From a virus (Duplodnaviria > Heunggongvirae > Uroviricota > Caudoviricetes): DNA of 21,605 nt. Location: IMG/VR virus record IMGVR_UViG_2529292836_000015; one strand, 5' to 3'. Both the position numbers and the translations under genes were made by a program. Below the pieces are notes generated by a model. It was given only the letters and a program-made list of their open reading frames with translations, ran no database searches and had not been told where the DNA came from. Of this stretch, positions 3,164-13,710 are shown one piece after another (within the stretch, counting starts at the first letter, position 1; every line of letters begins with the position of its first letter).

Positions 3164-3196
3164 TATGCCAGTTGTTTACTAAAAGTTATTAAAAAT

Positions 3197-3220
3197 GGGG
3201 CGTTGCAACGCCCCCAAAAA
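3197..3220 (-). terminator. intrinsic terminator read on the minus strand (porin / 3'-UTR transcript)
   Basis: Perfect 18-bp palindrome GGGGCGTTGCAACGCCCC (3197..3214). On the minus strand it is followed by ATTTTTAAT. Confidence 0.45.
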
Positions 3221-3352
3221 TAAAGGGTAATATATAACAGAAGGTTTATATAGTTAGAAGCAAGGTTGTGCTCCTAAAGGAAGTGGCTTGAGGGAGCCAC
3301 TTATATGTTGGGGAGGCAAAGCCTCCCGCAACATATCTTTTTCGTAATCAGA
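3221..3352 (-). ncRNA. candidate structured 3'-UTR RNA of the porin gene (IpeX-like sRNA locus)
   Basis: Between the porin stop (3353) and the minus-strand terminator there are two stable hairpins: AGTGGCT-TGAGGG-AGCCACT (3282..3301) and ATATGTTG-GGGAGGC-AAA-GCCTCCC-GCAACATAT (3303..3336). From memory, the DLP12 sRNA IpeX maps to the nmpC 3' region. Confidence 0.3.
3303..3342 (+). terminator. intrinsic terminator-like hairpin on the + strand (candidate tR'-type site downstream of Q)
   Basis: GC-rich stem GGGAGGC/GCCTCCC with extended flanking pairing, followed on the + strand by ATATCTTTTTCG. Confidence 0.4.
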
Positions 3353-4435
3353 TTAGAACTGATACACCAGACCTACAGCGACGATGTCGTCGGTATCAAT
3401 ACCAGCTGTTTTGGTAAACTTACTATCGTCAATTAAGTTGATTTTGTAATCAACAAAAGTGGACATGTTTTTATTAAAGTAGTAAGTAGCACCGACATCG
3501 ACATACTTGACTAAGTCTCGGTCACCATGAACACCAAGGTCTTTACCTTTTGACTGAAGGTAAGCAACAGATGGTCGCAGACCGAAGTCAAACTGATATT
3601 GTGCTACTGCTTCAAAGTTTTGTGCTTTGTTTGCAATATGGTTATTACCAAAAACGGTCATATTCTGAGTTTCAGAATATGTGGTAGCCAGATAGATATT
3701 GTTCGCATCATATTTCAGGCCTGCAGCCCATACTTCCGCATTTTTGCCGGAGGCATTGAATTTGCTCTTACCATAGGCGACCTGACCGTCAGTGCGATCT
3801 GATTTAGCATAGGTTGCACCCACGCCGAATCCTTCATACTCATAAGTAGTGGAGAAACCGAAACCATCACCATTGGCTTCAGTTACGTCAGTGCGGTCAT
3901 TTTTACCCTGATACTGAGCAGCAAAGTTCAGGCCATCGACCAGACCAAAGAAGTCGTTGTTACGATAGGTTGCAACACCAGTGGTGCGACCAGTCATGAA
4001 CACATCTGTTTGGGTCCAGGTATCGCCACCGAATTCTGGCAGAACGTCAGTCCACGCACCGATGTCGTATGCTACACCGTAGTTACGGCCGTAATCGATT
4101 GAGCCGTAGTCACCGAATTTCAGGCCTGCAAATGCAAGACGGGTTTTGTCTTTGGAGGAACCTTGAGATTCAGCGCGGTTGCCTTTGAATTCATATTCCC
4201 ACTGACCGAAACCAGTCAGTTGATCGTTGATTTGGGTTTCACCTTTGAAGCCAAGACGGGCATAAGTAGTATCACCATCATCTGCATCATTAGAGGAGAA
4301 GTAGTGCTTAGCATTAACTTTCCCGTACAGATCCAGCTTGTTACTGTCTTTATTATAAATTTCAGCTGCCTGAGCAGACATCGCCATCAGTACTGATGCA
4401 GCTACAGCAGAAATTGCCACTGTTAATTTTTTCAT
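3353..4435 (-). CDS. nmpC: phage-encoded general porin, NmpC/Lc/OmpD type, intact (360 aa)
   Basis: Signal peptide [23 protein letters not shown], beta-barrel porin sequence ending in the typical ...VGLVYQF. Matches the recalled NmpC/OmpD family. Located between Q and the holin, as in DLP12 and PA-2. Confidence 0.9.
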
Positions 4436-5932: not shown

Positions 5933-6466
5933 ATGAACGCAAAAATCAGATACGGCCTGTCGGCTGCCGTTCTGGCACTGATTGCCGTCGGTGCGCCTGC
6001 GCCTGATATTCTCGACCAGTTTCTGGATGAAAAAGAAGGTAACCACACAACGGCATACCGCGATGGTTCCGGCATCTGGACCATCTGTCGGGGTGCCACG
6101 GTGGTGGATGGAAAACCCGTTTTTCCCGGTATGAAACTGTCGAAGGAAAAATGCGACCAGGTTAACGCCATTGAACGGGATAAGGCGCTGGCATGGGTGG
6201 AGCGCAATATTAAAGTGCCACTGACCGAACCACAGAAAGCGGGTATCGCGTCATTTTGTCCCTATAACATTGGCCCCGGTAAGTGTTTCCCGTCGACGTT
6301 TTATAAGCGGCTGAATGCCGGTGATCGTAAAGGTGCATGCGAGGCGATTCGCTGGTGGATAAAAGATGGTGGGCGCGATTGCCGCATACGTTCAAATAAC
6401 TGCTATGGACAGGTTATTCGTCGTGACCAGGAAAGCGCATTAGCCTGTTGGGGGATAGAGCAGTGA
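5933..6466 (+). CDS. SAR endolysin (T4-lysozyme-like muramidase with N-terminal signal-anchor-release domain)
   Basis: N-terminal weakly hydrophobic Gly/Ala-rich segment [18 protein letters not shown], then catalytic E-x8-D-x5-T ([16 protein letters not shown]). Adjacent to the pinholin and Rz. Confidence 0.85.
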
Positions 6467-6924
6467 GCAGAGTCGCCGCGATTATTTATGCTTTGGTTAT
6501 CTGCATCATCGTCTGCCTGTCGTGGGCGGTCAATCATTACCGTGATAACGCCATCGCCTACAAAGAACAGCGTGATAAAAAAGTCAGTGAGCTGAAGCAG
6601 TCGATCGCCACCATCGCTGACATGCAGCAGCGTCAGCGTGATGTTGCTGCACTCGATGCAAAGTACTCGAGAGAATTAGCCAATGCGAAAGCTGAAAATG
6701 AAACTCTGCGCGCTGATGTTGCCGCTGGTCGTCGTCGGTTGCACATCAAAGCAGTCTGTCAGTCAGTGCGTGAAGCCACCACCGCCTCCGGCGTGGATAA
6801 TGCAACCAGCCCCCGACTGGCAGACACCGCTGAACGGGATTATTTCACCCTCAGAGAGAGGCTGATCACTATGCAAAAACAACTGGAAGGAACCCAGAAG
6901 TATATTAATGAGCAGTGCAGATAG
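6463..6924 (+). CDS. rzpD: Rz i-spanin (inner-membrane spanin subunit)
   Basis: GTG start overlaps the endolysin stop (GTGA). N-terminal [20 protein letters not shown] followed by coiled-coil. Matches recalled RzpD. Confidence 0.85.
6683..6865 (+). CDS. rzoD: Rz1 o-spanin lipoprotein, embedded in the +1 frame of Rz
   Basis: [20 protein letters not shown] lipobox, poly-Pro (PPPPP). Lies entirely inside Rz in another frame. Matches recalled RzoD. Confidence 0.8.
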
Positions 6925-6955: not shown

Positions 6956-7249
6956 TTATTGTGAGCAATACACACGCGCTTCCAGTGGAGTATAAATGCC
7001 TAAAGTAATAAAACCGAGAAATCCATTTACGAATGTTTGCTGGGTTTCTGTTTTAACAACATTTTCTGCGCCGCCACAAATTTTGGCTGCATCAACAGTT
7101 TTCTCCTGTCCAATTCCCGAAACGAAGAAATGATGGGTGATGGTTTCCTTTGGTGTTACTGCTGTCGGTTTGTTTCCAACAGTAAACGTCTGTTGAGCAC
7201 ATCCTGTAATAAGCATTGCCAGAGCGGCAGAAAACAACATTTTTTTCAT
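6956..7249 (-). CDS. bor: Bor lipoprotein (serum-resistance/Iss family, 97 aa)
   Basis: ATG at complement of 7247..7249 with AGGA SD. Translation MKKMLFSAALAMLITG-CAQQTFTV...GIYTPLEARVYCSQ matches recalled Bor/BorD. Confidence 0.9.
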   Translation of the reverse strand: MKKMLFSAALAMLITGCAQQTFTVGNKPTAVTPKETITHHFFVSGIGQEKTVDAAKICGGAENVVKTETQQTFVNGFLGFITLGIYTPLEARVYCSQ

Positions 7250-7429
7250 CTTATTATCCTGCATTGTTAAAAACGGCAGAATCCTATGTGACAACAATTA
7301 AACGATAGTTAAATGGATTGATGAAAATTAAAACTATATAGGTGGATGCTCAGCCTATCGGAGGTAGTCAGGATTTGAATGTCAGTCTGTTGTCGGCATT
7401 CTGGCAATGCAATTTGGATAAAGCGGGGA

Positions 7430-7552
7430 TTAAAAAGATAGAGGCGAGCCGGTCAGGTAGAAATGAATCAGGCTCAAAGTGAAGCGGAAAAGGTCTGTGG
7501 CACAAGCTGATGCAGCCATAATTACAGCCTGATGATTTGTGGAATGAAACAT
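7430..7552 (-). CDS. candidate 40-aa small protein with a perfect Shine-Dalgarno
   Basis: Minus strand reads TAAGGAGGT-TCAAC-ATG, then MFHSTNHQAVIMAASACATDLFRFTLSLIHFYLTGSPLSF, stop at complement of 7430..7432. No family recognised. Confidence 0.3.
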   Translation of the reverse strand: MFHSTNHQAVIMAASACATDLFRFTLSLIHFYLTGSPLSF

Positions 7553-7632
7553 GTTGAACCTCCTTAATTGATGTTATTCGAGTGATGAAGGCATTCTGTC
7601 CTTCTATAGTGTCCAGTAAATCAAACAGGAAA

Positions 7633-7654
7633 CTTGTCCAACGTGTTGGACAAG
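7633..7654. promoter_or_regulatory. perfect 10-bp inverted repeat CTTGTCCAAC-GT-GTTGGACAAG (candidate operator or packaging-related protein-binding site)
   Basis: Read directly from the sequence. Lies in the bor-HNH intergenic region, about 120 bp upstream of the HNH ATG and about 80 bp upstream of the minus-strand mini-ORF. Confidence 0.4.
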
Positions 7655-7774
7655 CCTCTCCATTAGTGAGTTGTATTGATCACAACTCTACAAAGAATTC
7701 ATTACTGGGTAGATGAAAATAGTTTCACTATGAATGGAGGAGGCTATGTCGGTGGCTTCTTCATTGGAGTACAT

Positions 7775-8125
7775 ATGCCCCCACGAATCCCACGCGCCTG
7801 CCGTAAGCGTGGATGTGCAGGTACAACCACAGACAGTTCTGGTTACTGCGATAAACATCGTGGCGAAGGATGGGTACAGCATCAACGCGGACTGAGCCGC
7901 CACCAGCGTGGCTATGGCTCGAAATGGGATGCCATACGTGCGCGCATACTGAAGCGTGATAATCATCTGTGTCAGAACTGCCTGCGCAATGGGAGAGCCG
8001 TTGAAGCCAGAACTGTGGACCACATCATTCCGAAAGCTCATGGTGGCACGGATGCAGACAGTAACCTGCAGAGTCTGTGCTGGCCCTGTCATAAAGCAAA
8101 AACAGCGCGCGAACGCATCAATTGA
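7775..8125 (+). CDS. HNH endonuclease (terminase-associated)
   Basis: ATG at 7775 with GGAG SD. Cys pairs (CRKRGC...C..C) and the HNH core (DHIIPKAHGGTDADSNLQSLCWPCH). Immediately upstream of terS/terL, as usual for HK97-type packaging modules. Confidence 0.8.
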   Translation: MPPRIPRACRKRGCAGTTTDSSGYCDKHRGEGWVQHQRGLSRHQRGYGSKWDAIRARILKRDNHLCQNCLRNGRAVEARTVDHIIPKAHGGTDADSNLQSLCWPCHKAKTARERIN

Positions 8126-8272
8126 TAACAGTTCCCATCTGTAGGGGAGGGGCAGGTCAAATCTCTGCAACCCTGGCTGCTCAGTACCGCCGCCTGACCT
8201 TTCCTCGCATCGCCGCAGGTTCGAAAACTTTTTTTTGGAATGTGATTAAATGATTGATAGGTAAAACCGATT

Positions 8273-8755
8273 ATGTCAGGACCCCTGAAAACCCCGCCAC
8301 GCCTGCATTTGATACGAGGCAACCCCTCAAAGCGCCCCGTTAAAGACCCAAAAAAAACCGCTAAAAAGGATGAAAAATGTCTCCCTAAAATTCCGCAACA
8401 TTTAGGGTCGCAGGGGAAGTACTGGTTCAGGCGAATGGCGGAAGAACTGAATGCGGAAGGGATCATTTCTCAGCTTGATGCGCGTGCACTCGAGTTACTG
8501 GTGGAAGCCTACACCGAATACCGGCATCACTGCGAAACACTCGATGTTGAGGGGTATACCTACCGCACGGAAACGCAGAACGGTGATGTGCTGATTAAGG
8601 CACACCCGGCTGCTGCGATGAAAGCGGATGCCTGGAAGCGGATCCGGGCGATGCTTGCAGAATTTGGTATGTCACCGGCAAGCCGGGCGAAAGTAAATAC
8701 CGCCGGACCGGATGATGTTGATCCGCTGGCGGAGCTTTTAAAAGCGAGAGACTGA
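8273..8755 (+). CDS. terminase small subunit (P27 family)
   Basis: 160-aa ORF directly upstream of and overlapping the large terminase (TGATG). Basic N-terminus. Family call by recollection. Confidence 0.7.
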   Translation: MSGPLKTPPRLHLIRGNPSKRPVKDPKKTAKKDEKCLPKIPQHLGSQGKYWFRRMAEELNAEGIISQLDARALELLVEAYTEYRHHCETLDVEGYTYRTETQNGDVLIKAHPAAAMKADAWKRIRAMLAEFGMSPASRAKVNTAGPDDVDPLAELLKARD

Positions 8756-12492: not shown

Positions 12493-13710
12493 ATGAAACT
12501 TCATGAGATGAAGCAAAAACGAAACACCATTGCAAAGGATATGCGTGCACTGCATGAAAAAATTGGTGATAACGCATGGACTGATGAGCAACGGGCAGAG
12601 TGGAACAGGGCGAAAGCTGAGCTGGATGCGCTGGATGAGCAAATCGCCCGTGAAGAAGAGTTGCGCCGTCAGGATCAGGCATATGTGGATGAGTCCGGGC
12701 CGGAAGAGCGCCAGAATAATGAGGCGGAGAACGGGAAAAAGGCGGTGGAAGAGAAGCGCGCTGCGGCATTTAACCGTTTTCTGCGTGCCGGATTTGCAGA
12801 ACTGAATGCTGAAGAGCGTAATCTGATGCGTGAACTGCGGGCTCAGAGTGTAACAACGGATTCTCAGGGCGGATATACGGTGCCCACGCAGATGCGTAAC
12901 AAAATCATTGACACCATGAAGGCTTATGGCGGGATTGCCAGTGTGGCGCAACTTCTGACCACATCAACCGGGCAGGATATCACCTGGTCAACGTCTGATG
13001 GCACGACTGAAGAGGGCGAACTGCTGGCGGAGAATACAGCCGCAACGGAACAGGATGTGACGTTCGGGACCGCTATTCTGGGGGCTAAAAAGCTGTCATC
13101 AAAAATAATTCGTGTGTCCAATGAGCTGCTCCAGGACAGTGGGGTGGATATTGAATCTTATCTGGCAAACCGTATTGCCCAGCGTATTGGTCGTGGAGAG
13201 GCAAAATATCTGGTTCAGGGGACCGGAACGGGATCACCGTTACAGCCAAAAGGGCTGGCAGCGTCGGTGACGGGAACCATCCAGACTGCAGCCTCTGCCG
13301 CTTTCACCTGGAAAGAAATGAATGCCCTGAAACATGCTATTGATCCGGCATATCGTGGTGGGCCGAAATACCGCTGGGCATTCAATGATGCCACATTGCA
13401 GACTATTGAAGAGATGGAGGATGGACAGAAACGCCCGTTATGGCTGCCGGATATTGCAGGCGGTACGCCGGCTACTGTGCTGGGGATCCCTTATGTTATT
13501 GATCAGGCTATTGACGGGATTGGTACCGGAAAAAAATTCATTTTCCTGGGGGATTTCAACCGCTTTATTATTCGCCGCGTTACTTATATGGAACTGAAAC
13601 GTCTGGTTGAGCGTTATGCTGAGTTTGATCAGGTGGCATTTCTGGCTTTCCATCGTTTTGACTGTGTGCTGGAAGATGTGGCAGCCATCAAGGCGCTCAC
13701 TGGCAAATAA
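12493..13710 (+). CDS. major capsid protein (HK97 fold) with N-terminal coiled-coil scaffold (delta) domain
   Basis: 405-aa ORF. N-terminal ~100 aa charged coiled-coil (KAELDALDEQIAREEELRRQDQ...), then capsid domain. Followed by an intrinsic terminator. Confidence 0.85.
   Translation: MKLHEMKQKRNTIAKDMRALHEKIGDNAWTDEQRAEWNRAKAELDALDEQIAREEELRRQDQAYVDESGPEERQNNEAENGKKAVEEKRAAAFNRFLRAGFAELNAEERNLMRELRAQSVTTDSQGGYTVPTQMRNKIIDTMKAYGGIASVAQLLTTSTGQDITWSTSDGTTEEGELLAENTAATEQDVTFGTAILGAKKLSSKIIRVSNELLQDSGVDIESYLANRIAQRIGRGEAKYLVQGTGTGSPLQPKGLAASVTGTIQTAASAAFTWKEMNALKHAIDPAYRGGPKYRWAFNDATLQTIEEMEDGQKRPLWLPDIAGGTPATVLGIPYVIDQAIDGIGTGKKFIFLGDFNRFIIRRVTYMELKRLVERYAEFDQVAFLAFHRFDCVLEDVAAIKALTGK

Follow-up and report, generated by a model that had tools for sequence, protein, structure and literature searches.

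The lytic podoviruses related to SP6 and K1-5 (Autographiviridae, Molineuxvirinae) carry promoters for a single-subunit RNA polymerase of their own. This class of promoters is well known. The K1-5 genome has 10 such sites, all on the coding (plus) strand and 8 of them intergenic; that of SP6 has 11, with the consensus ATTTAGGTGACACTATAGAAG. One of the places where they occur is the junction of genes 17 and 18 in K1-5, which corresponds to that of gp19 and gp20 in SP6. There, the stop codon is followed by a hairpin, about 15 nt, the promoter, a leader of about 48-50 nt, AAGGAG and the ATG of a protein starting with MFKIETIV... or MFTIETIV....

Other described systems are of interest for comparison. 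The morons of lambdoid phages, for example bor and lom, are autonomous transcription units inserted between the late genes, a concept that goes back to work of the Hendrix laboratory. In Lactococcus, phage-triggered suicide systems were engineered in the 1990s, in which a phage-specific promoter drives a lethal gene. Finally, there are the toxins of type I toxin-antitoxin systems, such as Hok, TisB, ZorO and Ldr. The locus described here is compared with them below.

The stretch of DNA analysed, in the following called the window, comprises 21.6 kb and is the late region of a lambdoid/HK97-like E. coli prophage. Its genes are arranged as follows.

Upstream genes of the window: NinB, RusA and a Q-like antiterminator
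3353-4435, minus strand: porin gene
Lysis cassette: DUF1327 protein, endolysin (5933-6466) and Rz (6448-6924) with embedded Rz1
6956-7249, minus strand: bor/iss
7342-7482, plus strand: ORF representing the truncated 3' remnant of a LysC/Rz1-type o-spanin gene, with homology from about 7365
7775-8125: HNH gene
8273-8755: P27-type small terminase, followed by the large terminase and the head and tail genes

The gap between bor/iss and the HNH gene (7250-7774) measures 525 bp, the size given in the first-pass annotation. The latter had pointed out a palindrome in this gap, seen as a possible operator of a dimeric protein or a packaging element, and a small minus-strand ORF behind a strong Shine-Dalgarno (SD) sequence, seen as a possible gene of a regulator or toxin. 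Both features exist, exceed the chance expectation and are conserved; the functions proposed for them are not supported. Palindrome and SD-ATG are very probably the two ends of one expression signal that an E. coli prophage has captured from a podovirus. The promoter, 21 nt long and located between the two, had been missed. The unit extends from 7654 to 7550 on the minus strand (about 105 bp) and consists of the hairpin, a 14-nt spacer, the promoter, a 52-nt leader, TAAGGAGGT and ATG. The features of the gap are:

7633..7654, minus strand: hairpin (palindrome), counterpart of the podovirus hairpin that lies behind the stop codon of gene 17 (K1-5) or gp19 (SP6) and in front of the promoter
7601..7621, minus strand: SP6/K1-5-type single-subunit RNA-polymerase promoter ATTTACTGGACACTATAGAAG, predicted +1 at G7604
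7553..7604, minus strand: predicted leader (5' UTR) of the phage-polymerase transcript, 52 nt
7430..7552, minus strand: 40-codon ORF, its start codon being the counterpart of the podovirus gene 18/gp20 start (MF...)
7668..7688, plus strand: second conserved hairpin GAGTTGT-N7-ACAACTC, outside the podovirus-homologous segment

The promoter is the central piece of evidence. It agrees with the K1-5 consensus, ATTTACTGGACACTATAGAAG as built from 10 genomic sites, in 21 of 21 positions and with the K1-5 promoter at 12579 in 23 of 23, and the minus-strand sequence 5'-GATTTACTGGACACTATAGAAGGA-3' (7622..7599) is identical with that same K1-5 site over 24 of 24 nt. The window contains a single match, as compared to 0.00 expected. 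The core from -7 to +1, CACTATAG, and the specificity bases from -12 to -8 were tested and are present. The promoter is oriented in sense to leader, SD and start codon, as it is in the podovirus genomes. From its sequence, recognition by a podovirus polymerase would be expected; a near-identical promoter, TATTTACTGGACACTATAGGAGGA, has been listed as the one employed for in-vitro transcription with an SP6-promoter-active phage RNA polymerase (PMC13029058, Table 2). The genes of the window are lambdoid or HK97-like, and no single-subunit RNA polymerase is encoded among them. With a single copy of the promoter and no polymerase, the window thus harbours an orphan promoter and not a part of a podovirus genome.

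Variation was studied in 45 distinct haplotypes of the segment 7365-7760, which were obtained from complete E. coli genomes, phage records, public assemblies and IMG/VR. The prophage alleles of the promoter carry either K1-5-type or SP6-type bases, and they differ exactly at -12 to -10, the positions that separate the two types. The major allele, found at 62 of 99 loci, is the perfect K1-5 consensus; the allele of Shigella phage SfIV matches the SP6 consensus in 20 of 21 positions. Among the haplotypes 11 of 23 promoter positions are polymorphic. Changes between -5 and -1, which probably weaken the promoter, occur in several of the minor alleles. One IMG/VR record (IMGVR_UViG_2778261354_000001, positions 1-100) displays a rearrangement breakpoint at the K1-5-type transcription start: the homology to the window stops exactly at promoter position +4/+5 and unrelated sequence lies beyond.

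The first lead to the podoviruses was a weak blastn match of 7601-7651 to the lytic Klebsiella phage KpnP_VR702. The homologous site proved to be the gene 17/gene 18 junction described above. When the minus-strand unit was submitted to a relaxed blastn search, matches covering hairpin plus promoter were obtained in SP6, BP12B, UAB_Phi78, the Kenya phages and numerous Klebsiella phages of the SP6 type; the genomes of K1-5, K1E and Vectrevirus yielded matches at 4-6 promoter sites each, with 93-97% identity. Local alignments from the hairpin to +10 reached scores of 48-65, the maximum of shuffled sequences being 24-28 (0 of 300 shuffles). With strict gap penalties the podovirus homology ends near +10, and 3' of the ATG no similarity to gene 18 or gp20 was detected.

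The palindrome is indeed perfect. Its arms, CTTGTCCAAC and GTTGGACAAG, are complementary in 10 of 10 positions around a GT spacer of 2 nt (7633-7654). For perfect inverted repeats of this kind (arms of 10 nt or more, spacer between 0 and 6 nt), chance predicts 0.16 occurrences in a window of 21.6 kb and 0.004 in 525 bp; two are observed in the window. The other one, CATATTCTGA-GTT-TCAGAATATG at 3659-3681, is situated within the porin gene of the minus strand. The minus-strand sequence of the palindrome, GTCCAACACGTTGGACAAG, agrees in 19 of 19 positions with the hairpin of KpnP_VR702, the O157-type variant GTCTCACACGTGAGACAA is identical with a K1-5-like contig, and the SfIV allele has the GCG loop in common with SP6. 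The palindrome persists in the relatives, where it occurs in nine variants with the inner 7 bp paired in nearly all of them. In 13 of 35 haplotypes, GTCCAAC/GTTGGAC has become GTCTCAC/GTGAGAC by a double compensatory change, and each of these two stems is also found in podoviruses. Template switching can produce symmetric changes of a palindrome without any selection; a compensatory change alone is therefore no proof of function. The idea of an operator is not supported: further half-sites were not found in the window with up to 1 mismatch, and the palindrome corresponds to the hairpin that precedes SP6/K1-5-like phage-RNA-polymerase promoters.

The other end of the unit is equally conspicuous. 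The SD sequence TAAGGAGGT is located at 7566..7558 on the minus strand; TCAAC follows and then, with this spacing of 5 nt, the ATG at 7552..7550. The 9-mer TAAGGAGGT occurs once in the window (0.06 expected), and the same numbers hold for AAGGAGGT-N3-8-ATG. AAGGAGG is present in 44 of the 45 haplotypes. Of all non-coding stretches, the one made up of leader, SD and ATG is conserved best; in the leader, the window and SfIV alleles differ at 2 of about 48 nt. The leader is predicted to be unstructured (z = +1.1), its SD being unpaired in the centroid structure. Similarity to the leader of K1-5 gene 18 is weak (p about 0.015, in a weak test), and a search of IMG/VR for a podovirus donor with the same leader retrieved prophage copies only. 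The major-capsid leader of K1-5-like podoviruses has TAAGGAGGT as its SD, too, as seen in IMG/VR contigs of this type (our loci L184-L213; compare L172, 22851-22935); K1-5 itself has TAAGGAGAT there. ATCAATT precedes the SD in the podovirus capsid leader and in the prophage leader. The prophage leader may thus be a chimera of podovirus leaders. A pairing on the plus strand of CCTCCTTAA (7559-7567), as an anti-SD, with GGAGGAGG (7736-7743) was considered and discarded; it is not conserved, because the partner reads GAAGGCAG in the SfIV and EC28 alleles.

What follows the ATG is of a different nature. The minus-strand ORF from 7552 to 7430 has, as claimed, 40 codons plus stop (MFHSTNHQAVIMAASACATDLFRFTLSLIHFYLTGSPLSF), and it is intact in 45 of 45 haplotypes. 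Neither a broken ORF nor a missing palindrome was thus encountered among the relatives. Codon-level analysis, however, disclosed no sign of purifying selection, which would be expected of a gene. In the part outside the spanin remnant, the polymorphic sites are distributed over codon positions 1/2/3 as 9/12/8, i.e., without an excess at the third position. For codons 2-20, pN/pS in the frame of the ORF ranges from 0.58 to 4.37, and the five remaining frames do not show higher values. Twenty-four DNA haplotypes give rise to 20 peptide variants. The differences are all within residues 1-20 except for one P37L variant; the 20 C-terminal residues are otherwise invariant. This invariance of the C-terminal half is accounted for by the opposite strand: the last 17 codons and the stop run antisense to the truncated o-spanin gene. 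Pfam, PHROGs and NCBIfam yielded no family match for the peptide. Its best 19-residue hydropathy is 1.40 in the window allele and 0.90 in that of SfIV, both below a typical membrane helix. The proposal of a small regulator or toxin gene finds no backing in these data.

It is improbable that the 40-codon ORF is a conserved protein gene. Most likely, it is an accidental frame behind a genuine translation-initiation region. Its body differs from the podovirus gene, shows no purifying selection and terminates within the antisense of the o-spanin remnant. We interpret the strong SD and the ATG as the site where translation of a podovirus gene was initiated, the body of which is now gone. To see in the ORF a truncated gp18 or gp20 did not work out; the similarity does not exceed that of shuffled sequence, and tblastn gave no match. 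Similarly, the lipoprotein signal AASAC in the peptide is missing from other alleles. In a large protein collection the peptide appears as 'hypothetical' only, in 16 small clusters, and a few singleton database entries have shifted C-termini. The NCBI annotation pipeline has not annotated the ORF in the E. coli genome records listed.

In summary of its architecture, the unit shares with the SP6-like podoviruses a promoter of 21-23 nt, a hairpin with stems identical to those of KpnP_VR702 or K1-5-like contigs, a distance of 14-15 nt between hairpin and promoter, a leader of about 50 nt, a strong SD of the AAGGAG type, and a Phe codon right behind the ATG. It differs from them by residing in a temperate HK97-like prophage, as a single copy, antisense to the surrounding operon and without a polymerase of its own. 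The gene that should be driven, which encodes a 122-residue protein with an acidic tail, is missing in the window.

How the gap itself came about can be read from its homologies. The segment 7250-7364 is 99% identical to the sequence upstream of bor in phage lambda; from 7365 onward the homology is to SfIV, at 85%. In SfIV the counterpart of the latter segment lies directly between the spanin genes and HNH, without any bor. The joint between lambda-like and SfIV-like sequence in the window is accordingly seen at about 7364/7365. The plus-strand frame that ends at the equivalent of 7482 is, in SfIV, the end of a full lipoprotein o-spanin with the lipobox LLTGC, and the fragment in the window (7342-7482) matches the Rz-like spanin families phrog_3001 (E = 8e-8) and phrog_456 (3e-4). 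The stretch 7365-7482 is therefore regarded as a truncated o-spanin remnant, left over after an SfIV-like lysis cassette had given way to a lambda-like R-Rz/Rz1-bor block. In the spanin frame pN/pS is 0.2-0.5 in 6 of 7 comparisons.

The relatives differ in what they carry at this place. An insert is absent in Edwardsiella, where only 26 bp separate o-spanin and HNH; an ORF of 162 aa is present in a prophage of Shigella flexneri, other E. coli alleles have ORFs of 65 or 100 aa after about 7745, and mEp235 has a terminator, KilA-N and another ORF. The slot between lysis cassette and HNH-terminase is for this reason considered variable and of the moron type. The plus-strand ORFs between the conserved core and HNH (about 7745-7775) vary among our loci L068, L071, L073, L074, L020 and L167, and the ORFs of the relatives are inserted immediately behind GGAGGAGG (7736-7743), a strong SD-like run. 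The ATG at 7746 that follows this run in the window is out of frame. In GTDB species genomes of other genera, 58 loci upstream of HNH genes showed no conservation beyond the o-spanin. As these genera have close HNH genes and an upstream region without homology, the region is specific to E. coli and Shigella.

Like the lambdoid morons, the unit thus occupies a slot with different inserts in relatives and, like the adjoining bor, is oriented against the late operon and has expression signals of its own. Unlike them, it depends on a phage-polymerase promoter instead of a sigma-70 promoter, no downstream terminator was seen, and its ORF shows no sign of a selected protein. The search for sigma-70 promoters on both strands, with a promoter tool and a weight matrix of our own, revealed sites at background level only. 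The best one on the minus strand, TTTACT-16-CAGAAT, has a score of 7.2, for which the chance expectation is 1.3 sites per 400 nt.

The following scheme would account for the observations. The unit would have been copied from a lytic Molineuxvirinae podovirus into the moron slot of an HK97-like prophage, where it points against the late operon. Since host RNA polymerase finds no evident promoter, the unit should be silent in an ordinary lysogen, and expression would be predicted only if an SP6/K1-5-like polymerase is present. If such a phage superinfects, or if the polymerase is otherwise supplied, transcription would start at G7604; the resulting mRNA, with its consensus ribosome-binding site, would be translated into the 40-residue peptide, and transcription would continue into bor/iss and then antisense through the lysis genes.

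Is the captured signal of any use to its carrier? On balance, it is probably a tolerated relic of recombination with podoviruses. The unconstrained peptide favours a relic. The 11 polymorphic promoter positions and the changes at -5 to -1 also fit decay and argue against a strongly selected function. A pure relic does not predict an ORF that is open in every haplotype nor the superior conservation of leader, SD and ATG. That the unit has been kept because it responds to superinfection is less likely.

The most attractive version of a function is a superinfection sensor or defence cassette: the promoter would be readable solely by the invader's polymerase and would work after host transcription has been shut off, and its product would harm the invader or kill the cell. 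As such a product one may think of the peptide, which is small and partly hydrophobic, of bor/iss at high level together with minus-strand genes downstream, or of an antisense RNA. The perfect consensus of the major allele, the allele differences precisely at the discriminating positions, the unstructured and well-conserved leader, the unbroken ORF and the spread over several mosaic backgrounds (see below) speak in its favour. We consider such a cassette unlikely, because the N-terminal half of the peptide evolves unconstrained, the constancy of its C-terminal half is due to the o-spanin gene, the hydropathy is low, minor alleles have damaged promoters, and no defence or toxin family is matched. 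Also, the searchable literature, screened by sequences and by concept, did not reveal an orphan promoter with hairpin, leader and ribosome-binding site in temperate prophages, and the genome paper of SfIV does not mention the element. It is unlikely that the HK97-like prophages of E. coli and Shigella possess, in this orphan promoter with a consensus ribosome-binding site and read only by an invading SP6/K1-5-like polymerase, a natural, invader-powered sensor. Its alleles would track the K1-5-type and SP6-type specificities, and its output, be it the peptide, bor/iss or antisense RNA, would serve defence or benefit the prophage.

If functional, the unit would share with the engineered suicide systems that expression occurs only when the invader brings the transcription factor or polymerase; these, however, are man-made and have a defined toxin, whereas function and effector of the prophage cassette are putative. 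With type I toxins it has in common a small ORF (below 60 aa) that is partly hydrophobic and located in a prophage. It deviates from them by lacking a family match, a convincing membrane helix, a host promoter and a conserved peptide, and a search for an antisense RNA partner found none.

A role of the hairpins as RNA structures was also taken into account. The palindrome could act as a weak intrinsic terminator on the minus strand and thereby as an insulator, or it could, together with the hairpin at 7668-7688, affect stability or processing of the late mRNA upstream of HNH. A terminator scan flagged the minus strand of the window and of the O157 alleles (a 13-bp stem, then CTGTTTGATT), and on either strand the predicted fold of the region is better than that of shuffled sequence (z = -2.5 and -2.9). 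The second hairpin exhibits plus-strand-specific G-U intermediates: its pairs change from UA via UG to CG, and they are paired to 99.2% as plus-strand RNA versus 88.2% as minus-strand RNA. This hairpin may be a separate structural element of the late mRNA ahead of the HNH gene. For the palindrome, such a role is unlikely. The terminator pattern, a G+C-rich stem followed directly by a U-tract, is seen on the minus strand of the window and O157 alleles and is not conserved: it does not extend to the SfIV and EC28 alleles, nor to the plus strand, which has no U-tract. The palindrome is paired to about 92% on either strand and thus provides no strand signal, and it is already accounted for by the homology to the podovirus hairpin. 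Rfam had no match at gathering score in the window, and between 7200 and 7800 chance-level matches only at E up to 10.

That the palindrome is a protein operator or packaging element and the ORF a regulator or toxin transcribed by the host is very unlikely: the palindrome is perfect, symmetric and conserved, and a consensus-like SD and ATG precede an ORF that is open in all relatives, but the site is single, the joint change of both arms fits base pairing better than protein contact, the same hairpin stands before promoters of lytic podoviruses, the SfIV record, which is ordered to end at the cos site, ends 58 bp after HNH and thus several hundred bp downstream of the palindrome position, and neither host promoters above background nor coding constraint nor a protein family could be found.

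The captured podovirus signal, in contrast, offers one coherent explanation for two puzzling features. It also removes what is likely a false small-gene call, which automated annotators had already made ('hypothetical protein'). It further implies that regulatory signals are exchanged between strictly lytic SP6/K1-5-like podoviruses and temperate lambdoid prophages, the alleles matching different podovirus types. The cassette is by no means rare: it is present in 632 of 5426 complete E. coli genomes (about 12%), in several mosaic backgrounds. Should the promoter be active, infection by K1-5/K1E/SP6-like phages, as employed in phage therapy and biocontrol, would elicit a transcriptional response in about one of every eight sequenced E. 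coli strains. If true, this would be a natural counterpart of the engineered phage-triggered circuits.

Some minor observations may be added. In E. coli MEI008 (NZ_CP074680.1, 1083-1795) the region equivalent to about 7552-7790 is partially duplicated in tandem; SD, ATG and hairpin of the second copy are decayed, and the HNH gene there is a pseudogene. In the window, the cos site is expected at 8126-8272, in the gap that separates HNH from the small terminase. Two G+C-rich hairpins, GGGGCGTTGCAACGCCCC and TGTTGGGGAGGCAAAGCCTCCCGCAACA (3196-3215 and 3299-3333), are situated downstream of the Q-like gene, before the 3' end of the porin gene is reached; they look like terminators, possibly the late terminator and that of the porin gene.
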